A DNA stretch of 64,000 bases from a virus (IMGVR_UViG_3300020598_000119); one strand, 5' to 3'; numbered from the stretch's first letter, positions 7,750-49,328 are shown. Program-made: numbers and translations. Notes: a model not told the origin generated them from the sequence alone.

Positions 7750-10503
7750 TTATTCCACATTTTCTGAGGCGTCGATTTCGACGTCAGCGTCAGCGAGTGG
7801 TGTAACCACTTCAGAGTCGTCGATTTCATCCGCACCGACCTTGGCGACGCTCACGATGCGCTGACCTTCAGGCAGATGGAACATCTTGACACCACGTGTC
7901 GCACGTCCCGTCTTACGGACATCCTTGACGCGGGTACGAATTGCCTGGCCACCGTCCGTGATCATAACGAGACCGTCGTCATCGACAACCGGGAAGCATG
8001 CAACGAGCGGGCCAGTTGCGGCGCTAACGTTTGCAGCGGCGAAGCCCTTAGCACCACGAGCGGTCGTGCGGTACCCGTAAGCAGATGAGCGCTTACCAAA
8101 GCCTTTTGCCGAGATGGTGAGCAAGAACTCTTCGTTTGCCCGCATTTCAGCCATGCGCTCATCAGACAGATCGACCGTATAGCTTTCACCAGTCTCCTGA
8201 AGATCAACCGTCGTACGACCGCCTGCAAGGTAGGCCTTCCGCTCGTCCGCCGAAGCGGGGACATGCTTCAGTACGGATGCTGCAATCACTTCGTTCCCAT
8301 TTACCAAGGTGATGGCCTTCACACCCGTACCACTGCGGCTCTTGACTTCACGAACGTCGTCAACTGGGAAGCGCACGCATTCCTTGTCGCGAGTAACTAC
8401 GATCACGTCGTCTTCGTTCGAGCAAAGCAGAACTTCAACCAAACGGCCTTCAGGGTTGCCATGCTCATCTTCAAGCTTGATGGCAATCTTGCCCGCCTTG
8501 TTGATACCCCAGAATGCCTTCGCATCATTTCGACGGATCGAACCAAAGTCAGTGACGAACACAAGGCTTTTGTTTTCCAACGCCGCTTCCTCTTCCGGCA
8601 TCGCGATAACAGCCGAAATAGTTTCGCCTTCACGGAGCGGCACGAAGTTGACCAGAGGGCGGCCCTTCGAGGACGGTGCGCCTTCAGGTAGCTTGTAAGC
8701 CTTCAAAGAATGGGCGATGCCACGGCTAGTGAAGAAAACAAGTGGGGTCTTGGTCGTGCAAATGATCGTCGACTGAACAAAGTCGTCGTCCTTCGTTTCC
8801 ATACCATTGCGGCCCTTGCCACCACGCTTCTGCTCGCGATATGCCGAAAGCTCAGTCGCCTTCACATAACCAGACCTGCTGATCGTGATAACAATGTCAC
8901 GGCGCTCGATGAGGTCTTCATCGTCGATGTCTTCAGCGTCATATGGGCTGATTGCCGTAATACGCTCCGATGAGAACTTCGCACGAACTTCCTCGAATTC
9001 ATTGCGAATTACGTCGTTCATGACGGAAACGTCGTTAAGGATCAGAATAAAACCCTGGATTTGTTGCGAAAGTTCACGGACCTTCGTCGCTACTTCATCA
9101 CGCGCAATACCCGTCAAACGGGACAGACGCATTTCGAGAATGGTATCAGCCTGAATGACAGACAGCGTGAAAACTTCACCGACCGGATTATCGGGATCAG
9201 CTTCAAGGAGCAGCTGCGCGAAATCACCAGAAGTCGGGAATTCCATTGCCATCAACCGTGCACGAGCAGTTTCGACATCTGGAGACGTCTTAATCGTGTT
9301 CACGATCTCATCAATCTTCGAAACGGCCGCGTACAATCCGAGTTGTTTGTGAAGAGCATCACGAGCCTGATTAAGTTCGAATTCAGTGCGGCGTCGAACT
9401 ACGACACGACGGAATGCGACAAATTCGTTCAGAATATCGAGAAGTGGCATTTCAAGCGGCTTACCACGGCTGTTCAGAACAGTTGCATTGTATGAAAACG
9501 AGGATACAAGACTCGTCTTCTTTTTGAGCGTGTTCAGAATGATATTCGGATCGACGTCGCGGCGAAGATCAATGGCAACGCGAAGCGGAGATACACGGTC
9601 GGCTTCGTCACGAATTTCAGTGATGCCTTCGATTTCCTTCTTATTAGCCAGTTCGGCGACACGCTCCTGGAAAGCCTTCGAGCTGTAGCCATACGGCAGT
9701 TCAGTCACGATGATCTGGGTCTTGCCATTCTTCAGCTCAACGATCTCTGCCTTGCCCGCAATGCGGATGGAGCCGCGACCCGTGCGATAGGCTTCACGGA
9801 TGCCACCAGTGCCCTGAATGGTGCCAGCCGTTGGGAAATCAGGCCCAGGAAGCACAGTCATGACTTCATCGAGTGTGGCGTTTGGATTGTCCAGAACCAT
9901 CAGACAGGCATCGAGCGTCTCACCGAGGTTGTGTGGCGGAATATTCGTCGCCATGGCAACCGCGATCCCCTGCTGGCCGTTGACTAGAAGGTTAGGGAAA
10001 CGGACAGGCAGAACCTTCGGCTCCTGCTGGCGGCCATCGTAGTTAGGCTGCCAATCAACCGTATCCTTATCAATGTCGGCAACAGCGTAGTGTGCCAAGC
10101 GTGTCATACGCGATTCCGTATAGCGCATTGCAGCCGCGCCATCGCCGTCACGAGAGCCAAAGTTACCCTGACCGTCGATCAACGGATGACGTTGCGACCA
10201 AGGTTGCGCCAGTCTGACCATCGTCTCATAAATTGCAGCATCGCCATGCGGGTGGTAATTACCCATGACGTCACCGACAATCTTTGCGGACTTATTATAC
10301 GAGCGATTTGCATGGTAACCTCCCTCGTTCATGGCATGAACGATACGGCGATGGACTGGCTTCATGCCATCACGAACGTCAGGAACTGCACGGCTCACGA
10401 TAACGCTCATTGCATAGTTCAGATAAGAACTATTCATCATGTTCTCGATTGTCACATCGAGAATGCCTGTCTTTTCGGAATTTTGTTCGATTTCCATATC
10501 CAT
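7750..10503 (-). CDS. gyrA: DNA gyrase subunit A
   Basis: VPDVRDGMKPVHRR, YHPHGD, AAMRYTE (catalytic Tyr), GyrA-box QKRGGKG and C-terminal beta-pinwheel repeats. Confidence 0.97.
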   Translation of the reverse strand: MDMEIEQNSEKTGILDVTIENMMNSSYLNYAMSVIVSRAVPDVRDGMKPVHRRIVHAMNEGGYHANRSYNKSAKIVGDVMGNYHPHGDAAIYETMVRLAQPWSQRHPLIDGQGNFGSRDGDGAAAMRYTESRMTRLAHYAVADIDKDTVDWQPNYDGRQQEPKVLPVRFPNLLVNGQQGIAVAMATNIPPHNLGETLDACLMVLDNPNATLDEVMTVLPGPDFPTAGTIQGTGGIREAYRTGRGSIRIAGKAEIVELKNGKTQIIVTELPYGYSSKAFQERVAELANKKEIEGITEIRDEADRVSPLRVAIDLRRDVDPNIILNTLKKKTSLVSSFSYNATVLNSRGKPLEMPLLDILNEFVAFRRVVVRRRTEFELNQARDALHKQLGLYAAVSKIDEIVNTIKTSPDVETARARLMAMEFPTSGDFAQLLLEADPDNPVGEVFTLSVIQADTILEMRLSRLTGIARDEVATKVRELSQQIQGFILILNDVSVMNDVIRNEFEEVRAKFSSERITAISPYDAEDIDDEDLIERRDIVITISRSGYVKATELSAYREQKRGGKGRNGMETKDDDFVQSTIICTTKTPLVFFTSRGIAHSLKAYKLPEGAPSSKGRPLVNFVPLREGETISAVIAMPEEEAALENKSLVFVTDFGSIRRNDAKAFWGINKAGKIAIKLEDEHGNPEGRLVEVLLCSNEDDVIVVTRDKECVRFPVDDVREVKSRSGTGVKAITLVNGNEVIAASVLKHVPASADERKAYLAGGRTTVDLQETGESYTVDLSDERMAEMRANEEFLLTISAKGFGKRSSAYGYRTTARGAKGFAAANVSAATGPLVACFPVVDDDGLVMITDGGQAIRTRVKDVRKTGRATRGVKMFHLPEGQRIVSVAKVGADEIDDSEVVTPLADADVEIDASENVE

Positions 10504-10540
10504 TCCTTCTATTTAATTCGTGTCCGGCACTTTCTCTCCT

Positions 10541-11143
10541 TTAAAAGAGAGAGGGCATCGGTCCAGAGCGATCTGCAGAGGCGGGGGCAGAGATCGCAAC
10601 GCGCTCGACCTCAAGATCGACAGCAACCTTGGCTGGCGTCTGTTCAACGAACTGAACACTTTCAGTGCGCAACCTTTCTGCTGCAAAACTAACAGCTTCT
10701 CCGGCCTCATGCTGCCCTGTGCCAAATTCGGCGAAATCGGGTTCTTCAATTCCCAATTCTGGGGACTTTGCGACCAACGCCTCAGCAAGAGCTGCCTCAA
10801 CAGCAGCATCAACAAGTTGGTCGACCTGTGCTTCCGTCGAGAAAAGCGGGTCAACCATCTTGAACAGCCGGGTGTTAATACGAACGTTCTGGTTCAGCGA
10901 CTTATTCATCACCTTTTCGGCAATGATTACGCCGTCTAGAACAGCAGATTCGTCTGCGTAGAACGTGGTTGCCTGCGCGTAGCCATCGAACTGACCTTTT
11001 ACGTAGATCTCTTCAGCGATGACATGACCATCGAACTTAATGCCGAGCGGCACCAAGAGCTTCTTGCAAACAATCGAGCCATTAAAGTCTTCCTTCAGAC
11101 TGATCTGTTTGTTTTGATCACGGATCATTTTTTCTAGACTCAT
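10541..11143 (-). CDS. bactofilin-like (polymer-forming cytoskeletal) protein
   Basis: Beta-helical repeats FNGSIVC/FDGHVIA/FDGYAQA/LDGVIIA followed by an acidic tail. Confidence 0.7.
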   Translation of the reverse strand: MSLEKMIRDQNKQISLKEDFNGSIVCKKLLVPLGIKFDGHVIAEEIYVKGQFDGYAQATTFYADESAVLDGVIIAEKVMNKSLNQNVRINTRLFKMVDPLFSTEAQVDQLVDAAVEAALAEALVAKSPELGIEEPDFAEFGTGQHEAGEAVSFAAERLRTESVQFVEQTPAKVAVDLEVERVAISAPASADRSGPMPSLF

Positions 11144-11179
11144 AAAAATCCCCATAAAAGGCGGCAAAAATCTGCATAA

Positions 11180-11208
11180 ATTGTATTTGGCACGTCTATT
11201 TGTGTCAA
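11180..11208 (-). promoter_or_regulatory. sigma70-type promoter for the bactofilin-gyrA operon
   Basis: TTGACA-N17-TACAAT on the minus strand. Confidence 0.75.
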
Positions 11209-11379
11209 CAATGTTGAACGAAATAAACCTTATTTAATGGAAAATTATTTGAGCGACGTCGATATTCGGAGAAACTATGAATCAGCGCTCGGAACCAGGG
11301 CATAAAAGGAGTGAAATCGACATACAAATACGACGGCAGCACAGCCTAAGTTACCTCCAGAGACTGTGCTTTAAAGCTG

Positions 11380-11727
11380 TCAGGCTATGCGGGTTGCTTT
11401 CTCGTGGTTCTTAACAGCGCCCTTCATGCTCTCAGGGTATTCCAAGACTATTTCGACCTTCTTATCCATCATTCGGGGAGATCGAACTATAATCGTCGGC
11501 CGTTCGTTATTTGGGCCTACCATATCAGCATACTTGGCTCGATACTTCTTGGCTTGGCCTTCAAGGAGGCGGCGGGCTACCCGATTGACCTGAGACAGAT
11601 CAAGTTTCTTTCCCCCGACCTCAAATCGGACCTGAATTTCCGAGTCATCAGCTTCCACCGGAACGACAGTTTCCGCAGCAACTCCGACGTCTTCATGCTC
11701 TACGTTATGGATAGCATTATCAGACAT
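11380..11727 (-). CDS. hypothetical protein (115 aa)
   Basis: AAGGA RBS, clean ORF. Confidence 0.7.
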   Translation of the reverse strand: MSDNAIHNVEHEDVGVAAETVVPVEADDSEIQVRFEVGGKKLDLSQVNRVARRLLEGQAKKYRAKYADMVGPNNERPTIIVRSPRMMDKKVEIVLEYPESMKGAVKNHEKATRIA

Positions 11728-11830
11728 GGATTTATCCTTCTTTTATTGCACATATTGATGATGAAGGATTTTCGACATCTGGCAAGCAGACCAATAACAA
11801 AATGTCAGGAAAGATGAATGTTATTCAGCG

Positions 11831-11866
11831 AAATGGCCCCTCGATTTTCACCGAGAGGCCATTTTT
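11831..11866. terminator. hairpin terminator after gyrB
   Basis: AAATGGCC.CTCG/CGAG.GGCCATTT inverted repeat. Confidence 0.65.
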
Positions 11867-11889
11867 ATAAAACTGGTGGATATTAGAGA

Positions 11890-14376
<2,487 letters not shown>

Positions 14377-14391
14377 TTAAATATCCCAGAT

Positions 14392-14420
14392 ATTGTGACG
14401 ATAATAATGTGAGGCGTCAA
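14392..14420 (-). promoter_or_regulatory. putative gyrB promoter
   Basis: TTGACG-N17-CACAAT on the minus strand. Confidence 0.6.
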
Positions 14421-14478
14421 CAATATTGCAGGAAAAATGCGGCTGCGATTTATTTAAATGAAATCGAAAAAATATCGT

Positions 14479-14507
14479 TTGACAAGTGCTAGCCGACCAT
14501 TCATAAA
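14479..14507 (+). promoter_or_regulatory. putative promoter of the leader-tRNA operon
   Basis: TTGACA-N17-CATAAA preceded by an A/T-rich UP-like tract. Confidence 0.65.
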
Positions 14508-14558
14508 GGGGACAAGCGATTGGGCGGATGCCCGTCCATTCAACTTTGAGAGAGTACA

Positions 14559-14633
14559 ATGCGCAACACGAGAACGACATGGACATGTTGGAGAACCTAC
14601 AGGGGCTTCCCTGGAGGCGGAGACGTCTGTTGA
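14559..14633 (+). CDS. leader peptide MRNTRTTWTCWRTYRGFPGGGDVC (putative attenuator of the tRNA array)
   Basis: GAGAGAG RBS. Codons 4-12 are ACG AGA ACG ACA TGG ACA TGT TGG AGA, codon 15 is AGG and codon 24 is TGT, all cognate to downstream tRNAs. Followed by a terminator. Confidence 0.85.
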   Translation: MRNTRTTWTCWRTYRGFPGGGDVC

Positions 14634-14661
14634 CTCGTTGAGCGCAGTTACCGCAACCAAG

Positions 14662-14694
14662 AAGCCTCGAATGAAAATTCGGGGCTTTTATTTT
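14662..14694 (+). terminator. attenuator terminator upstream of the first tRNA
   Basis: 11-bp stem AAGCCTCGAAT-GAAA-ATTCGGGGCTT followed by TTATTTT, 16 nt before tRNA-Trp. Confidence 0.88.
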
Positions 14695-14710
14695 GTCTGG
14701 AATTCAGTTT

Positions 14711-14785
14711 AGGGGTGTAGCCAAGTGGTTAAGGCAGCGGTCTCCAAAACCGCCATCGGGGGTTCGAGTCCCTCCACCCCTGCCA
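14711..14785 (+). tRNA. tRNA-Trp (CCA)
   Basis: AGGGGTG/CACCCCT acceptor stem, GCGGT-CTCCAAA-ACCGC anticodon arm, GGTTCGAGTCC T arm, G73, encoded CCA. Confidence 0.96.
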
Positions 14786-14797
14786 CCGAAAGATAAG

Positions 14798-14965
14798 ATG
14801 ATGGTAAATAGACTTTTGGAGTTGATGCTTGAAGGAGAAACAGATAACAGTATTCTTCAGGATGCGTGGGATAAAATGCAGGAGCAAAAGAGGCTTGCCC
14901 TAGAGGAAATTGGTCAGAGAATACAGAATGGAGAGCCTCTCACTGTTGAGTTTGACTTGGATTGA
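14798..14965 (+). CDS. small acidic hypothetical protein (55 aa) inside the tRNA array
   Basis: ORF fills the Trp-Thr spacer almost exactly; RBS is weak. Confidence 0.55.
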   Translation: MMVNRLLELMLEGETDNSILQDAWDKMQEQKRLALEEIGQRIQNGEPLTVEFDLD

Positions 14966-14978
14966 TACAAGTAATTCT

Positions 14979-15054
14979 GCCAAATTAGCTCAGTTGGTAG
15001 AGCAGCGCTTTCGTAAAGCGAAGGTCGGGAGTTCGAGTCTCTTATTTGGCACCA
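14979..15054 (+). tRNA. tRNA-Thr (CGT)
   Basis: GCCAAAT/ATTTGGC acceptor stem, CGCT-TTCGTAA-AGCG, GTTCGAGTC, CCA. Confidence 0.95.
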
Positions 15055-15056
15055 GA

Positions 15057-15166
15057 GGTCCGCTATAAAATGCGGATTCCGCGCAGCCTAATTAGTTGCG
15101 CCATGGCTTTTCGGGCGGTTGAGCCGGATAATCAACTGCCCCGCGAATATAAGCGTCGTGAGACGC
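15057..15166 (+). ncRNA. putative structured RNA (four hairpins) between two tRNA-Thr genes
   Basis: Stems TCCGC/GCGGA, GCGCAGC/GTTGCGC, GGGCGGTTGA/TCAACTGCCC and GCGTC-GTGA-GACGC. Confidence 0.45.
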
Positions 15167-15171
15167 GATGT

Positions 15172-15247
15172 GCCGTTGTAGCTCAGCTGGTAGAGCGCCT
15201 GATTTGTAATCAGGATGTCACGGGTTCGATCCCTGTCGGCGGCACCA
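15172..15247 (+). tRNA. tRNA-Thr (TGT)
   Basis: GCCGTTG/CGGCGGC acceptor stem, CCTGA-TTTGTAA-TCAGG, GGTTCGATCCC, CCA. Confidence 0.96.
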
Positions 15248-15326
15248 TAAAATCTGGCGTGCGGTTGTTAAAGGATTAAAAGCCTTTCCCCGCCAGTAGG
15301 AATAAAACTGGTAGCAATGCCAGTAC

Positions 15327-15400
15327 GGCCTGGTGGCGGAGTGGTTACGCGGCGGACTGCAAATCCGCTTACCCGAGTTCGATTCTCGGTCAGGCCTCCA
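15327..15400 (+). tRNA. tRNA-Cys (GCA)
   Basis: GGCCTGG/TCAGGCC acceptor stem, GCGGA-CTGCAAA-TCCGC, U73, CCA. Confidence 0.96.
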
Positions 15401-15430
15401 AATAAATATCTAGTGCATCTGATGCACTTT

Positions 15431-15506
15431 GGTCCCGTAGCTCAGTGGAAAGAGCAGGAGCCTTCTAAGCTCAAGGTCGTAGGTTCGAATCCTACCGGGA
15501 TCGCCA
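15431..15506 (+). tRNA. tRNA-Arg (TCT)
   Basis: GGTCCCG/CGGGATC acceptor stem, GAGC-CTTCTAA-GCTC, A20 identity base, CCA. Confidence 0.95.
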
Positions 15507-15536
15507 CCGTTCATACTTTGGGAAATCCAAAGTATT

Positions 15537-15611
15537 GTCTCCGTAGCTCAGTGGAAGAGCAATTTCCTCCTAAGAAATAGGTCGCAGGTTCGAATCCTGC
15601 CGGAGACGCCA
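15537..15611 (+). tRNA. tRNA-Arg (CCT)
   Basis: GTCTCCG/CGGAGAC acceptor stem, ATTTC-CTCCTAA-GAAAT, GGTTCGAATCC, CCA. Confidence 0.96.
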
Positions 15612-15778
15612 TCAAAATCGTGTCGTGATCGCTCATAATCTCGAAGCCATCGATGCGATCATCGAGCACAGCAAGATCAGGGCGTACGGAGCCTCTGACT
15701 ACCGCCTTAAGCTCGTTCACGATCACGAAGCAAGGCAACCCTATGACCTCGTCATTCATCAGCAGCGTTTCCTGCAGG

Positions 15779-16903
15779 TTAAGTCCCTTCTATCCAGTCG
15801 GAAAAATCTTTGACCAATGGCTCCAACAGCGGCGCGACGTCCATTTTCGAGGCCATCGATTTGTATGCAGGAACCTCCAGCAACGCACGATGGCCAACTT
15901 CTGCGCCGATCAGGTTGCCAAGAACCGCTGCAGTGGAGTCGCTATCTCCCGAATGGTTCACAGCAATTTCGAATTTTCGCTCCAAGGGCACGTCTGCAAG
16001 GGCGGCCAAAATAGCAATGGCAAGGCATTCATGTCCTACCCACCCGCCACCGAGCACCTCAACGTGTTCAGGAGCGATATCAGAGATCGGGGCGATCTTC
16101 ATTACCGAAAGAATGAGCGTTCGCATCAGGCCAGCGTTCTCTACGCCCCTAAGGTATTCCTCAAGCCCAAAGACAGCTGCCTTCAGGCTTTCCCCCTGAG
16201 CGAGCCTATTGACCAGCCAACTTAGCGCCCCAGCAGGAATATAGCCCATTGGGTGCCCATGGGTCATAGCGGCCGCCTTGGCTCCGAGCATGAAACAGTG
16301 CGCGGGATCGGAAAGATTCAGGAAACCTATGGGGGCAACCCGCATGACGCCTCCGCACCCCATGGAGTCGTTTAGCGGGCGCTCAATGGTGCCGATAGCA
16401 CCAGCCTTGCAGGCCGACAGGCAGGTCATTCCAGGTGCTCTGTTGACCCTCATCAAATGGGAATGCCCTAACCGCCCAACAGGCACCTGCGAAGGGTTAG
16501 ATTGTTGGGTTATATACCAGTCCAGATAGGCGTCACGAATACAATCCAATGAGCGCTCTGCTGTGAGGCGATCTCCCCATCGTTGATGAGCCACCAAAAG
16601 GCCCTCCGCAGTAAACATGGTCATTTGCGTGTCGTCACTAACCAGACAACGCTCCCAGGTTGGGAACACGAGTGAAATCGCACGCATAGAGACACCACTC
16701 GGGCCAAATTTTTCCCGAATGGTAGAAATGGAATCAAACTCAACAGCGTAACCAAGCGCATCACCAACCGCCCCCGCATAAAGGCAACCGTAAATCCGGT
16801 CATTCAATGAAAGAGGATGAGGTAGTGCGGCCTCATCCTGCGGAGCAACTTCAATGCTGTCATCTTTCTTGGACAGGAAGATTGATTTCAGTTTTTTGAT
16901 CAC
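15779..16903 (-). CDS. ADP-ribosylglycohydrolase (DraG/ARH family)
   Basis: GDALG..VEF, SDDTQMT, GCGGVMR, THGHP and GDSDST motifs; GGAGG RBS before GTG 16903. Confidence 0.92.
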   Translation of the reverse strand: MIKKLKSIFLSKKDDSIEVAPQDEAALPHPLSLNDRIYGCLYAGAVGDALGYAVEFDSISTIREKFGPSGVSMRAISLVFPTWERCLVSDDTQMTMFTAEGLLVAHQRWGDRLTAERSLDCIRDAYLDWYITQQSNPSQVPVGRLGHSHLMRVNRAPGMTCLSACKAGAIGTIERPLNDSMGCGGVMRVAPIGFLNLSDPAHCFMLGAKAAAMTHGHPMGYIPAGALSWLVNRLAQGESLKAAVFGLEEYLRGVENAGLMRTLILSVMKIAPISDIAPEHVEVLGGGWVGHECLAIAILAALADVPLERKFEIAVNHSGDSDSTAAVLGNLIGAEVGHRALLEVPAYKSMASKMDVAPLLEPLVKDFSDWIEGT

Positions 16904-17047
16904 GTGACGCCTCCGATCGTGCGTCAATTTTTACAGATTATTTCAGATGGATCAAATTGCTCATTGAACTATCTGAACAAATATGAGAAAGGAATTAGGT
17001 CTCCGTATTGCTGCGGCTGCTGAACCCATCAATTCTGGAGAACTATC

Positions 17048-18493
17048 ATGAAAATCACTGGCACTTTGCCTGCGAACAGTCGCGTCCGTGTTTCCGGTCA
17101 CGACGTTCACACTATCACTTCGTATAACGAGCCTGAACGACACAAGAGGCTGGCGCTTGATGATCTGTCGAATGCCATTCCGACGCATGATGCGTTTGAA
17201 CAAGCCGCAGCGGCAGTCAAAAGGATTGTGACCACACCGGACTTTCACGCTGGCAAGCCAGTTCCGGTCGGCGTAACCATGTCCATTGAAGGCGCTGCGA
17301 TGCCACATGTCATCGGCAATGACATTGGATGCGGCATGCGAATGGTCGTACTTAACGACGTCACCGAGGACGATCTGGCCGTCAGCGCGCTGGATGGCCA
17401 TTTGCGTCATGTCCATTTCCAAGGCAGTAGAAACATTGCGCTCTCTGGAAGACAGCGCCACGCAATCCTCAAGGAAGGCATCCCAGGGCTGCTGGAAGCG
17501 CTGGCCGGGGACGCGAAGGGGCTATTGGGCAACCTAGAACTAACAGCCGCGTGGAGAGACGTCAGCAGGACCTGTGATGATGGCTTCTTTCCGTCTGTAG
17601 ACATCGATAACGGCTTTCTCGAATACGGAAACCTCACTGACGGATACCGTTACGATGCCATCCTAGGCTCAATCGGTGGAGGAAATCACTTCGTCGAACT
17701 CGGTGTCATCGACAAAATCGTAGACAGCACGTTCGCTATGGCTGCTGGCGTAAAAGCTGGTGCCGTCGTCATGGTCGTTCACTCTGGCTCCCTCGATTTT
17801 GGCCAATATGTCGGCTCAACGACGAAAGGAAGAATGCGAGGACTGGCCAGACATGGCGATCAGCGCATCCTTTCTGCAGAGCACCACACAGACGAGCTAC
17901 AGCGCTTCCTCAACGGCCAAGCTAACGCGGTTAATATCGCTTTTGCAAACCGCTTTCTGATCGGCCTAGCGACCATCCATGCGGTCGAGAAGGCACTGGG
18001 GAAGCGAGTGGACGCAAGATTGATCTATGACGCTCCTCACAACGTCATCTGGTCAGATGGTAACACTTACATGCATCGAAAGGGGTCATGTCCAGCACGA
18101 GGCCAAGGCTTCCAGCATGGTTCGCCTTACGAGTGGCTCGGAGAACCCGTCATCCTGCCAGGCTCCATGGGAGACGGAACATGGCTACTAAGAGGGCTTG
18201 GCAATGAGGAGACGCTAAAGTCTGCAGCTCATGGAGCGGGACGACGCCTATCGCGCCAAGAAGCACGAGCCGAGGCCAATCATCCTGCTGACCTCCAGGT
18301 GATTACACCCATCGATCTCAATGCTCCTGAGGTGCGTTGCAGAGCGGATATCGTTCGTGAAATCGTCGGCCGATTGAAGGAAGAATCTCCTGATGCTTAT
18401 CGGCCAATCGAAAATGTTGTCGCTCCAATGGAGGACACTGGAATGGTCAACAAGGTTGCCAAAGTGCGTCCGGTCATCACCGTCAAAGGATGA
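17048..18493 (+). CDS. rtcB: RtcB family RNA 2',3'-cyclic phosphate/5'-OH ligase
   Basis: PDFHAG, NDIGCGM, GGNHFVE, HSGS, PHN, HRKG, PGSMG, SAAHGAGR and EESPDAY motifs. Confidence 0.93.
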   Translation: MKITGTLPANSRVRVSGHDVHTITSYNEPERHKRLALDDLSNAIPTHDAFEQAAAAVKRIVTTPDFHAGKPVPVGVTMSIEGAAMPHVIGNDIGCGMRMVVLNDVTEDDLAVSALDGHLRHVHFQGSRNIALSGRQRHAILKEGIPGLLEALAGDAKGLLGNLELTAAWRDVSRTCDDGFFPSVDIDNGFLEYGNLTDGYRYDAILGSIGGGNHFVELGVIDKIVDSTFAMAAGVKAGAVVMVVHSGSLDFGQYVGSTTKGRMRGLARHGDQRILSAEHHTDELQRFLNGQANAVNIAFANRFLIGLATIHAVEKALGKRVDARLIYDAPHNVIWSDGNTYMHRKGSCPARGQGFQHGSPYEWLGEPVILPGSMGDGTWLLRGLGNEETLKSAAHGAGRRLSRQEARAEANHPADLQVITPIDLNAPEVRCRADIVREIVGRLKEESPDAYRPIENVVAPMEDTGMVNKVAKVRPVITVKG

Positions 18494-18795
18494 CAACTTG
18501 TCGCACCCTTGCTCTGCCTTGAAAACATTGGATTTTCGGATTCGCGTCGAGAAAAAATCGAGCCAAAAATATACACAAAACCTGATTTATATCGAGCGAG
18601 TCCACCAATGTAGCTTTTCACGCGTGCGGACACTTCCTTTGTGACATGCGTCGGCGGGTATACCATAGATAGTATGTGAGGCCTTCGTAGGGAAAGGATA
18701 AATTGTCGAAGGAATTTATGTAGGAATAATTCATTGTGGGCAACAGATTTTGCTGCCAATAATGACTTTCCTTTCGGAATTACCCCGTATATTCT

Positions 18796-18811
18796 CAACA
18801 AGATATAGAGA
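18796..18811 (+). promoter_or_regulatory. possible NrdR box upstream of nrdH
   Basis: caaCAAGATATAGaga fits the CwAtATaTwG core; a weaker match ataCCATAGATAGtat lies at 18660-18675. Confidence 0.4.
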
Positions 18812-18948
18812 ATGCGTGATCTTTCCGAGATCATAAATTTCCCAAAAGACACGGGCACGAAAAACTTGGGTGCAAACCCTTGTTTGCAAAGCCTTTGTCT
18901 GCGAGCGCCTCAGGGTCAAAAATAAAACCAGATAGAAGGAAGAATGAA

Positions 18949-19173
18949 ATGCAAATTACCGTTTATAGCAAGCCAGCCTGCCCTCAGTGCTCCGCAACCA
19001 CCCGCGCTCTCGACAAGAAGGGGGTTGAATATGCCGTCGTCGACGTTTCGAAGGATCAGGACGCCTACGCACTCGTAACTGGTCTAGGCTATCGTCAGGC
19101 TCCAGTCGTCGTCGCTGGCGAAACCCATTGGGCTGGTTTCCGCCCGGACATGATCAGCTCGCTTGCCGCTTAA
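18949..19173 (+). CDS. nrdH: NrdH redoxin
   Basis: [12 protein letters not shown]...QAPVV...WAGFRPD. Confidence 0.95.
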
Positions 19174-19184
19174 AGGGCTGCGCG

Positions 19185-19580
19185 ATGAGTATGCTCGTTT
19201 ATTTTTCAACAAAATCCGAATATACCCATCGCTTTATTCAGAAGCTCGGTATTGAAAATTCCCGCATACCGATCAATTCGAAAGAATTCCTGATCGCTGA
19301 AAAACCTTTTGTGCTGGTCGTCCCCACCTACTGCGATACCGCAGGTAAAGGGGCCGTCCCACAACAGGTTTTGAATTTTCTGGACCATGAAGAGAATCGC
19401 AGGAATATACGCGGTGTAATTGCTGCAGGAAATACGAATTTCGGTGCTCAATATGCAATTGCAGGAAACGTGATTAAGAGGGATTATGGTGTCCCCTTCC
19501 TTTATCGTTTTGAATTGATGGGCACGACTGAGGATGTGGCCAATGTCCAGAACGGCCTCGAAAGCTTCTGGAAGCGTTAA
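19185..19580 (+). CDS. nrdI: NrdI flavodoxin-like protein
   Basis: [21 protein letters not shown] and FELMGT motifs. Confidence 0.95.
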
Positions 19581-19595
19581 GTTTAGGAGAATGTA

Positions 19596-21719
19596 ATGGC
19601 TAGTGAAAATGAAATCGATTATTTTGGCCTGAATGCGATGCTGAATCTCTTTGATGAGAACGGCAAGCTTCAGCTCGACAAAGATAAGCAGGCTGTCCGT
19701 CAATATTTCCTTGAAAATGTGAATAGAAACACTGTTTTCTTTCATAATCTAACGGAGAAGCTGGCTTATCTCATCGACAATGGATACTACGAAAAGGAAG
19801 TCTTTGAGCTTTATTCGGACAAATTCGTCCATGAGCTTTTTGATTATGCGTATTCATTCAAATATCGTTTCACGAATTTCGTTGGCGCGTATAAATTTTT
19901 CACCTCTTATGCCTTGAAGACTTTTGACGGCAAGCGCTTCCTCGAACGCTTTGAAGATCGCGTTGCGATGAACGCTCTGGCACTCGCTCGCGGTGACGAA
20001 AAGCTGGCCAAGAACCTCGTTCAGGAAATCATCACCCGCCGTTATCAGCCTGCTACGCCGACTTTTGCGAATGCTGGCAAGAAGCAGCGAGGCGAGCTGG
20101 TTTCGTGCTTCCTACTTCGTGTTGAAGACAACATGGAAGCTATTGGCCGCGCCGTGAATTCCGCTCTGCAGCTTTCAAAGCGCGGTGGCGGCGTTGCTCT
20201 AAACCTCACAAACCTGCGTGAACACATGGCTCCGATCAAGCAGATCGAAGGACAGTCCTCTGGCATCGTCCCTGTCATGAAGCTTCTGGAAGACGCCTTC
20301 TCTTACGCAAACCAGCTCGGATCACGTCAGGGCGCTGGTGCGGTTTATCTGAACGTCCACCATCCGGACATCATGAAACTGCTCGATACCAAGCGCGAGA
20401 ATGCTGACGAAAAAATCCGCATCAAGACGCTTTCGATTGGCGTGATTATTCCTGACATCACGTTCCACCTCGCGTCTCGCGATGAAGACATGTACCTCTT
20501 CTCTCCGTATGACGTCGAACGCATTTACGGCATGCCATTCTCCGATATTTCGGTCACCGACAAATATTATGAGATGGTCAATAACCCGAACATCAAAAAG
20601 TCGAAGATCAACGCGCGCAAGCTGTTTCAGGCTATTGCCGAGATTCAGTTTGAATCGGGCTATCCGTACATCATGTTCGAAGATCATGTGAACGCAGCCA
20701 ACCCAATCCACGGCAAGGTATCGATGAGCAATCTATGCTCGGAAATCCTGCAGGTCAGTGAAGCCAGCGAATTCAACAGCGATCTCTCCTATGCGAAGCT
20801 CGGCAAGGACATTTCCTGCAACCTCGGCTCGCTCAACATCGCCACGACGATGGACTCCCCTGATTTCGGTCAGACCATCGAGACGTCCATTCGTGCCCTG
20901 ACTGCCGTTTCGGACATGAGTGACATTTCTTCAGTCCCAACCGTCGAGCGCGGCAATAACGAGAGCCATGCCATCGGCCTTGGCCAGATGAACCTGCACG
21001 GCTATCTCGCTCGTGAACGCATCTTCTACGGCTCTGAAGAAGGCATCGATTTCACGAACATGTACTTCTACACCGTGACCTATCACGCCCTGCGCGCTTC
21101 AAATGCCATCGCCCGCGAACGAGGCGTAACCTTCAAGGGATTCGAGAAATCGAAATACGCTACTGGCGAATATTTCGACAAGTACACCGAGAAGGCTTGG
21201 GTTCCGACAACGGAGAAGGTCAAGGGTCTCTTCGAAAAGGCTGGCATCGCCATTCCAACGCAGGAAGATTGGCTTGCGCTGAAGAAGCTCATCATGGAGC
21301 ACGGCATTTACAACCAGAACCTTCAGGCTGTGCCGCCGACTGGTTCGATCTCCTACATCAACCATTCGACCTCTTCGATCCATCCGATTGTCTCGAAGAT
21401 CGAAATCCGCAAGGAAGGTAAGATCGGCCGCGTCTATTATCCAGCTCCGTACATCTCCGATGACAACCTCGAATATTATGAGGATGCTTATGAGATCGGG
21501 CCGGAAAAGATCATCGACACCTATGCTGCCGCTACGCAGCACGTCGACCAAGGCTTATCTCTGACGCTGTTCTTCCGTGACACAGCCACGACCCGCGACA
21601 TCAATCGCGCTCAGATCTACGCGTGGAAGAAGGGCATCAAGACCATCTACTACATCCGCATGCGCCAGGCCGCGTTGGAAGGTACGCAGATTGAAGGCTG
21701 CGTCTCTTGCGCCCTCTAA
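19596..21719 (+). CDS. nrdE: class Ib ribonucleotide reductase alpha subunit
   Basis: [34 protein letters not shown] and C-terminal CVSCAL. Confidence 0.97.
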
Positions 21720-21738
21720 GAGTTCGAAAGGAAAATAA

Positions 21739-22761
<1,023 letters not shown>

Positions 22762-49056: not shown

Positions 49057-49110
49057 ATGTCCGTCACTTTCACAGCACTCAAACGAAAACTTTGGCACTG
49101 CGCGTCATAG
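49057..49110 (+). CDS. putative leader peptide MSVTFTALKRKLWHCAS
   Basis: AGGAA RBS; AAA CGA AAA codons; followed by a terminator and then two tRNA-Lys genes. Confidence 0.5.
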   Translation: MSVTFTALKRKLWHCAS

Positions 49111-49138
49111 CGGCAGGATATCCGTTCTCTTTGACCAG

Positions 49139-49164
49139 AGCCGCGATGTCCTCGCGGCTTTTTT
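49139..49164 (+). terminator. intrinsic terminator (possible attenuator)
   Basis: AGCCGCGA-TGTCC-TCGCGGCT plus TTTTT; no long + strand gene lies upstream to explain it. Confidence 0.8.
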
Positions 49165-49286
49165 AATGCGCAGTGCGAAACCATCCCTCGAATTCGATGG
49201 CTTTCGATGCGCTATTTTAGCGCCACGGAACTCCTTTGATTATTGCCTAACTGATTGAAATTTATATCTTTTTTCTATTTTTGTTG

Positions 49287-49315
49287 TTGACTTGGTTTTT
49301 TGGGTATGCCATATA
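49287..49315 (+). promoter_or_regulatory. putative promoter directly before tRNA-Lys
   Basis: TTGACT-N17-CATATA, similar to the rhizobial sigma70 consensus, preceded by a T-rich tract. Confidence 0.65.
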
Positions 49316-49328
49316 TAGATCATCAAAT

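Follow-up and report, generated by a model that had tools for sequence, protein, structure and literature searches.

A probable leader-peptide transcription attenuator ahead of a tRNA gene array on a Rhizobiales accessory replicon

In the stretch of DNA analysed here (64,000 nt, referred to as the window), an array of six tRNA genes is probably gated by a transcription attenuator of the ribosome-mediated (leader-peptide) type, with the segment 14596-14694 as its decision module. A hairpin (H), an antiterminator (AT) and an intrinsic terminator (T) compete within this module. The pairings exist, the computed equilibrium preference among them flips with the position of the ribosome, and the layout is kept in 15 relatives. 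The leader is presumably translated, the choice between AT and T would be made kinetically, and read-through into the array is expected to rise when the cognate charged tRNAs are scarce.

Leader, terminator and tRNA array

The leader lies upstream of the tRNA array (Table 1), in a gap of 350 nt that separates the array from a divergent gyrB, identified with Pfam on the minus strand at 11890-14361. Genes for gyrA, bactofilin, ADP-ribosylglycohydrolase, RtcB and NrdEF are found in the neighbourhood, that for RtcB 1.4 kb past the array. Transcription is predicted to start near 14514. The hairpin in the 5′-UTR might be an RNA stabiliser or a processing signal. Relatives of group A (ten leaders, described below) carry hairpins of different sequence at this site, for example AGCGC-AUG-GCGCU, CGGC-N5-GCCG and UCGGGGCA-UGG-UGCUCCGA.

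The elements expected of an attenuator are found in this gap. The leader ORF is short, and GAGAGAG, a putative ribosome-binding site, lies 5-11 nt upstream. Ten consecutive Thr, Arg, Trp and Cys codons (14568-14597) form the control run; nine of the ten match anticodons of the array exactly, the readers being Thr-CGT, Arg-TCT, Thr-TGT, Trp-CCA and Cys-GCA. An intrinsic terminator follows the leader ORF and precedes tRNA-Trp, the first gene of the array. Its 5′ arm (14660-14672), GAAA loop (14673-14676) and 3′ arm (14677-14689) are followed by the U-tract, and 14661-14668 is the segment common to T and AT. The AT strand that shares the 5′ arm of T is predicted to be exposed only when a ribosome stalls on the control codons. 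The terminator ends 16 nt before tRNA-Trp, a gap that leaves no room for a second promoter ahead of this gene.

Table 1. Features of the leader, the candidate attenuator and the tRNA array in the window
Feature	Position	Strand	Description or basis
Promoter-like site	14479-14507	+	TTGACA 14479-14484, 17-nt spacer, CATAAA 14502-14507
5′-UTR hairpin	14518-14541	+	14521-14527 with 14532-14538, loop ATGC; MFE and centroid folds
Leader ORF, 24 codons	14559-14633	+	MRNTRTTWTCWRTYRGFPGGGDVC; Shine-Dalgarno-like GAGAGAG 14548-14554
Long lower stem, H at tip	14560-14564/14642-14646 and 14568-14572/14634-14638	+	MFE fold
Control codons 4-12	14568-14594	+	ACG AGA ACG ACA TGG ACA TGT TGG AGA; anticodon match
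Hairpin H (putative anti-antiterminator)	14596-14617	+	Own fold, mask folding, RNAalifold consensus
Putative antiterminator AT, 5′ strand (segment 2)	14602-14609	+	GGGGCTTC; partner of 14661-14668
Intrinsic terminator T	14660-14694	+	13 pairs 14660-14689, then TTTTATTTT to 14694
tRNA array, six genes	14711-15611	+	ARAGORN; Rfam tRNA model, 62-71 bits
tRNA Trp-CCA	14711-14785	+	
tRNA Thr-CGT	14979-15054	+	
tRNA Thr-TGT	15172-15247	+	
tRNA Cys-GCA	15327-15400	+	
tRNA Arg-TCT	15431-15506	+	
tRNA Arg-CCT	15537-15611	+	

The array of the window has Arg-CCT as its sixth gene; all 13 complete orthologous arrays end at Arg(TCT). Between tRNA-Trp and tRNA-Thr(CGT) lies a 55-codon ORF (14798-14965, MMVNRLLELMLEGETD...), which would be a small protein gene within the tRNA array. 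Two relatives (L036 and L037) have weakly similar ORFs of 52-54 codons at the same spot. A second leader (49058-49166, MSVTFTALKRKLWHCAS, with AAA CGA AAA) and a terminator (49288-49316) are found before two tRNA-Lys genes elsewhere in the window. About 160 nt and a further promoter-like site, TTGACT-N17-CATATA, intervene between this second terminator and tRNA-Lys, so that the attenuator there may not be the sole route to the tRNA-Lys genes.

Pairings of the decision segment and ribosome position

Hairpin H had been proposed in an earlier interpretation of this DNA made without database searches (the sequence-only reading), and it is present as CCT-A-CAGGG-GCTT-CCCTG-G-AGG. It is formed of 5+3 pairs with bulges at A14599 and G14614, and its energy is -10.9 kcal/mol when folded alone. 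The same reading placed within H a near-copy of the terminator 3′ arm, and GGGGCTTC indeed equals GGGGCTTT (14681-14688) at 7 of 8 positions. Its proposed pairing with GAAGCCTC (14661-14668) is likewise found, over 8 bp including one G-U. In an RNAduplex comparison across the whole leader, 14602-14609 was the best partner for the terminator 5′ arm (-13.8 kcal/mol); the same duplex in 500 dinucleotide shuffles gave -9.1 +/- 1.9 kcal/mol, and 1% of the shuffles were equally good. AT spans only the lower 8 of the 13 terminator pairs, and the 4-5 loop-proximal terminator nucleotides outside it are a possible toehold for displacement.

Two further pairings were proposed by the earlier reading. GAGGC (14614-14618) is complementary to GCCTC (14664-14668), but a functional pairing is not supported; the complementarity is no more than chance, since it amounts to 5 bp and its probability is 0.00 in every ensemble. 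The stem formed by TGCGC and ACGAG (14560-14564, 14568-14572) with CTCGT and GCGCA (14634-14638, 14642-14646) exists, but it is not conserved. The MFE fold that contains it has -68.6 kcal/mol (z = -3.95), and its probability in the RNA without a ribosome is 0.98, so that the start codon is predicted to be buried when the RNA is untranslated. The stem does not appear in the consensus fold of 10 relatives. Its sequence is identical in the closest relative (L036), and therefore no covariation bears on it. The lower stem is probably specific to the lineage of the window.

The AGG codon at 14601-14603 sits within both H and the AT strand, and a stall at AGG would therefore block AT. AGG is kept in group A relatives within CAGGGG, and Arg-CCT occurs in none of the 13 complete arrays. 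For these two reasons AGG is probably a structural and not a sensing codon, and its match with the sixth tRNA of the window may be a coincidence.

The folding of the leader under a translating ribosome was computed with a mask extending from -15 to +12 of the A site, on an RNA ending at 14676, so that the terminator 3′ arm was not yet present. When codons 4-11 (ACG AGA ACG ACA TGG ACA TGT TGG) occupied the A site, the probability of AT was 0.97-0.99 and that of H 0.00-0.02. The probability of AT fell to 0.56 with the A site on codon 12 and to 0.00 on codons 13-22. In the RNA without a ribosome it was 0.01, and H had a probability of 0.92. MFE structures agree with these values, and the codon boundary shifts by at most one codon when the edge of the footprint is varied from A+9 to A+15. 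H is thus predicted by the masked folds to lock 14602-14609 unless a ribosome abuts it. The sequence-only reading held that a ribosome stalled in the control codons frees the AT strand, which agrees with the masked folds, and that a ribosome reaching the stop codon covers it, which does not. With the stop codon in the A site the ribosome covers ~14616-14643; 14602-14609 is covered while codons 13-22 are decoded, and at the stop it lies behind the ribosome, where H refolds with a probability of 0.55-0.62.

As a second measure, it was calculated how much free energy it costs to free the terminator 5′ arm (the freeing cost) when ribosome-spanning pairs are forbidden. Mean occupancy of the 5′ arm was discarded as a measure, as weak spacer pairings score high in it. 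In the window the cost stays at 7-10 kcal/mol as far as codon 11 (TGG) and is 6 at AGA and 0-1 at ACC and TAC; without a ribosome it is 2.0 kcal/mol. E. coli trpL, taken from a RefSeq genome and run through the same script, served as positive control. With the ribosome at GGT-TGG-TGG-CGC its cost was 8-9 kcal/mol, against 0 at the stop codon and 0.2 without a ribosome. The method therefore recovers a textbook attenuator. On these modelled costs, the antiterminator of the window is predicted to be as strong as that of trp.

In the full-length RNA at equilibrium T wins under every mask, with a probability of 0.99, and the switch must therefore be kinetic. Dominance of the terminator under all masks had been named in advance by the sequence-only reading as an outcome that would speak against it. 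Such dominance does hold at equilibrium, but it does not refute a kinetic switch, because trpL shows it as well (terminator 0.96, also when a ribosome occupies the Trp codons).

The following course of events is proposed. A ribosome stalled on the Thr, Arg, Trp and Cys control codons would have its leading edge just short of 14602, and a stall on the last of these codons would melt the 5′ side of H. GGGGCUUC would then be left free as the terminator 5′ arm emerges, AT would form and T would be blocked, and RNA polymerase would continue into tRNA-Trp and the rest of the array. Under fast decoding, the ribosome would cover 14602-14609 (A site on codons 13-22) or pass it, upon which H would refold; the 5′ arm would stay free, T would form and transcription would stop at ~14694. 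When the leader is not translated, H and the lower stem of this window would hold 14602-14609, and T would form.

A wider reading is offered more tentatively. Giant accessory replicons of Rhizobiales might carry a codon-resolved tRNA homeostat, in which the array is transcribed in proportion to the slow decoding of its own codons, and which may top up tRNAs that are scarce in the host or lost to damage. A ribosome at the last Trp codon would melt the conserved hairpin, and the freed strand would go to the terminator arm; the conserved hairpin may in addition be a pause signal that synchronises polymerase and ribosome. Genes for RtcB and ADP-ribosylglycohydrolase adjoin the array.

Conservation of the layout among relatives

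Orthologous leaders adjoining a plasmid-type gyrB were gathered from contigs with GyrB homologues, from plasmid pRlX5 and from a motif scan of metagenomes, and 15 were obtained. Homologues of the adjacent GyrB form a series from 96 to 57% identity, on contigs of up to 823 kb, and the closest named relative of the locus found is the Rhizobium leguminosarum plasmid pRlX5 (1.32 Mb). The metagenome scan with a 10-residue GyrB motif gave 120 loci; the array was present in 5 only, 3 of them new. The family motif takes the place at which chromosomal alphaproteobacterial GyrB has HHMVYEVVDN.

Other searches returned few or no relatives. In blastn of leader and array against 61 related genomes, a 100% identical copy was found in G001 only, and the rest matched the tRNA-Trp part; the same query against phage records and against plasmid records gave matches to tRNA only. 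Viral contigs contained GyrB relatives at 42-49% identity only and no match to an exact 21-nt leader pattern. The matches listed in a GyrB search of genome contigs were chromosomal gyrB at no more than 56% identity, with no family member among them. Two further gyrB loci were considered and set aside: that of Bosea pANAM02 is without a tRNA array, and that of Rhizobium sp. NLR16a p3 has the surroundings of an ordinary housekeeping gene.

The element family (window 7750-22761; loci L037-L059) has gyrB, a bactofilin gene and gyrA in common. Many of the related elements add genes for a DNA methylase, thioredoxin, pentapeptide-repeat and T5orf172 proteins. The family is found on contigs of 250-823 kb and on pRlX5.

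All 15 relative leaders have the same synteny. In 16/16 leaders a promoter-like sequence, TTGAC[ATG]-N16-18-[CT]A..., lies upstream of the leader ATG, with 22-51 nt between its end and the ATG. The leader ORF of every relative has 21-28 codons and is rich in ACG, ACA, TGG, TGT/TGC and AGA, with runs of 5-11 control codons; a hairpin directly after the last control codon, the stop codon and a strong terminator are present in each. The 13 arrays that are complete on the fetched contig encode Trp, Thr (one or two genes), Cys and Arg-TCT, and those of L036, L174 and L234, cut by the contig, end at Cys. At two loci (L045 and L058) a Na+/H+ exchanger gene is inserted between gyrB and the leader. As this insertion leaves the leader-terminator-tRNA unit intact, the attenuator travels with the array and not with gyrB.

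The RNAalifold consensus of the ten group A leaders contains exactly two helices, H and T. The sequence-only reading had suggested covariation across homologs as a check. For T (10 relatives) it was found clearly, both partners having changed in 6 of 12 pairs, and none of 500 shuffles reaches the score. In H the core CAGGG/CCCUG is invariant; the outer pair (columns 47-63) varies, being C-G in L053, A-U in L056 and G-C in L174 and L248, and 19 of 500 shuffles reach the score. Covariation of H in group A is thus thin, limited to one outer pair, because its core does not vary. In group B, the place of H in the ORF is taken by a hairpin (ACAUCC/GGGUGU) that is unrelated to it in sequence.

The G-rich codons had been read as an RNA element, and the relatives bear this out: the peptide past the control run varies (RGFPGGG, RGSPEG, RGSLGGG, RGPEGGG, RGSLVAAG, HPVGC, HPGGC) and the hairpin is kept, from which it follows that the constraint is on the RNA and not on the peptide. 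In group A, a TG-TTG motif 10-14 nt past H (window 14626-14632; alignment columns 73-79) is almost invariant despite differing frames and stops. U14628/G14629 together with G14619 fit the G-10/Y-1/G+1 pause consensus, 11 nt after H, and H may double as a polymerase pause hairpin.

The position of AT relative to the control codons was the same throughout. The segment that pairs best with the terminator 5′ arm was located, in 16/16 leaders, at ORF positions +32 to +79; it closely follows the control codons and shares nucleotides with the local hairpin. The freeing cost peaks at the last TGG in 15/16 leaders and at the adjacent TGC in one, and sequestration of the 5′ arm collapses within 2-4 codons after the peak in all 16. 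The contrast, obtained by subtracting the cost for a ribosome four codons further along or at the stop from that for a stall at the last TGG, was +5 to +15 kcal/mol in 16/16 leaders. When the intervening sequence was shuffled 120 times, none of the shuffles matched the contrast in 12 leaders, and at most 2 did so in the other 4. The relatives share ancestry, and these counts are not independent trials.

The AT pairs themselves differ between lineages: GGGGCUUC/GAAGCCUC, GGGUUCC/GGGACCC, GGGGGUC/GGCCCCU, CCGACGGGGU/GCCCCGUCGG, CCGGUCGGG/CCCGACCGG and CCGGUGGG/CCCACCGG. The register of the pairing also shifts from one relative to another. Consensus folds of the truncated RNA recovered the AT helix within each of two group A subgroups; such a fold across all of group A gave nothing useful. 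The AT duplex alone was no better than shuffles in L039, L041, L059, L037, L056, L045 and L058 (p = 0.19-0.84). A matrix of cognate against non-cognate duplexes, computed as a covariation test of AT, had no diagonal signal, the G-rich leaders pairing with any C-rich arm. The evidence for AT is therefore positional and architectural and not one of pairwise covariation, since its duplex energy is unremarkable in about half of the relatives and swapped arms pair equally well. In group B and in L174, AT is favoured even without a ribosome (freeing cost 5-14 kcal/mol), and because of this the rule that an untranslated leader terminates is not general.

Alternative explanations and comparison with known systems

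H might be kept for pausing the polymerase or slowing the ribosome, with the AT complementarity a by-product of G-rich and C-rich sequence and the true antiterminator elsewhere or absent. The cross-matrix without cognate specificity and the relatives whose AT duplexes do no better than shuffles are what this explanation leads one to expect, as is the invariant core of H in group A; TG-TTG, kept 10-14 nt past H across frames, suits a hairpin-dependent pause. We nevertheless consider it unlikely, because none of the 16 leaders contains a better partner for the 5′ arm, 120 shuffles per leader equalled the position-specific contrast twice at most, and the different hairpin of group B again complements its own arm (8-11 bp perfect in L043, L058 and L052). 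Pausing and anti-antitermination are, besides, compatible roles for one hairpin. It is improbable that nothing is sensed at all, the promoter, short ORF and terminator making a small RNA or micro-protein and the tRNAs being reached by constitutive leaky read-through. Dominance of the terminator at equilibrium is in keeping with such an arrangement; ten consecutive codons read by array species, nine of them exactly, are not, and the 15 relatives keep these runs as the peptide varies. The gap of only 16 nt between terminator and tRNA-Trp and a switch geometry the same as that of trpL also argue against it.

The remaining two explanations place the control in other pairings. That the main control is the stem 14560-14572/14634-14646, which would hide the start codon and regulate leader translation or act as a classic 1:2 pairing with H just its tip, is very unlikely in spite of a probability of 0.98 in untranslated RNA and a z of -3.95 for the fold: the consensus of 10 relatives does not recover it, the post-stop segment of the relatives forms a small hairpin of its own, and group B is without such sequestration. 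The 5 bp between GAGGC (14614-14618) and GCCTC (14664-14668) exist, and the GAGGC strand is uncovered with the A site on codons 11-12, so that a ribosome covering the 5′ arm of H could be imagined to free it as the working antiterminator. With a pairing probability of 0.00 under every mask, and arms without GCCUC in L041, L053 and L056, we give this explanation hardly any weight. An attenuator built on H, AT and T remains the preferred reading.

The regulation of bacterial tRNA genes is usually assigned to their promoters, through growth rate, the stringent response or repressors such as TrcR. Leader-peptide attenuation is a textbook readout of charged tRNA, known for amino-acid and synthetase operons. 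Here such a device appears to act back on the tRNA genes themselves, with the resolution of single anticodons, and its architecture is kept in 16 leaders from isolates and metagenomes. If true, tRNA supply would be regulated by a new logic, nature would provide a compact sensor for the speed at which chosen codons are decoded, and there would be a hint of the way in which very large mobile replicons fit their translation to foreign hosts. Full-text literature searches, incomplete in coverage and leaving absence unproven, returned no report of leader-peptide attenuation of tRNA genes. A cmscan of 13800-15800 against Rfam at E <= 1 gave tRNAs and sub-threshold noise only, with no Thr, Trp, His or Leu leader and no T-box.

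The trpL, thrL and ilvL attenuators have, like the window, a short ORF, a run of regulatory codons and an intrinsic terminator before the first gene. In trpL-type systems, as here, the antiterminator strand lies just past the control codons and shares the 5′ arm of T, and an upstream hairpin competes with it. The thrL and ilvL leaders mix codons for several amino acids, and so does the leader of the window. The differences from the trpL type are that the gated genes are tRNAs and not biosynthetic enzymes, that the codons match the array by anticodon (ACG with Thr-CGT, ACA with Thr-TGT, AGA with Arg-TCT), and that the antiterminator strand is part of the ORF, 22 nt ahead of the stop codon, and of a local hairpin of its own. 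Unlike the enterobacterial attenuators, that of the window (50.6% G+C) belongs to an accessory replicon of Rhizobiales. In E. coli pheST (pheM leader) an aminoacyl-tRNA synthetase operon is attenuated through Phe codons, so that there too a leader-peptide attenuator precedes a gene of the translation apparatus. The product in the window is the decoding tRNA itself, and the loop therefore closes on tRNA supply.

T-boxes resemble the window in that transcription is attenuated according to the state of the tRNA pool, by terminator and antiterminator helices that compete. Uncharged tRNA is bound by the T-box RNA itself, with no need for translation, whereas the window has a leader ORF in place of a specifier loop. 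The trn operon of Anabaena sp. PCC 7120 is a megaplasmid-borne tRNA array that is supernumerary and has spread horizontally; it is induced by translational stress and co-regulated with rtcB (PMC8421152). Among accessory tRNA arrays it is the best studied. The window has an RtcB gene 1.4 kb past its array. Control of the Anabaena operon is at the promoter, whose direct repeats are bound by the repressor TrcR, and neither attenuation nor a leader peptide is mentioned for it (PMC8421152, PMC10272220). The device of the window would be a known mechanism, multivalent leader-peptide attenuation as in trpL and thrL, applied to targets of a new kind, tRNA genes.
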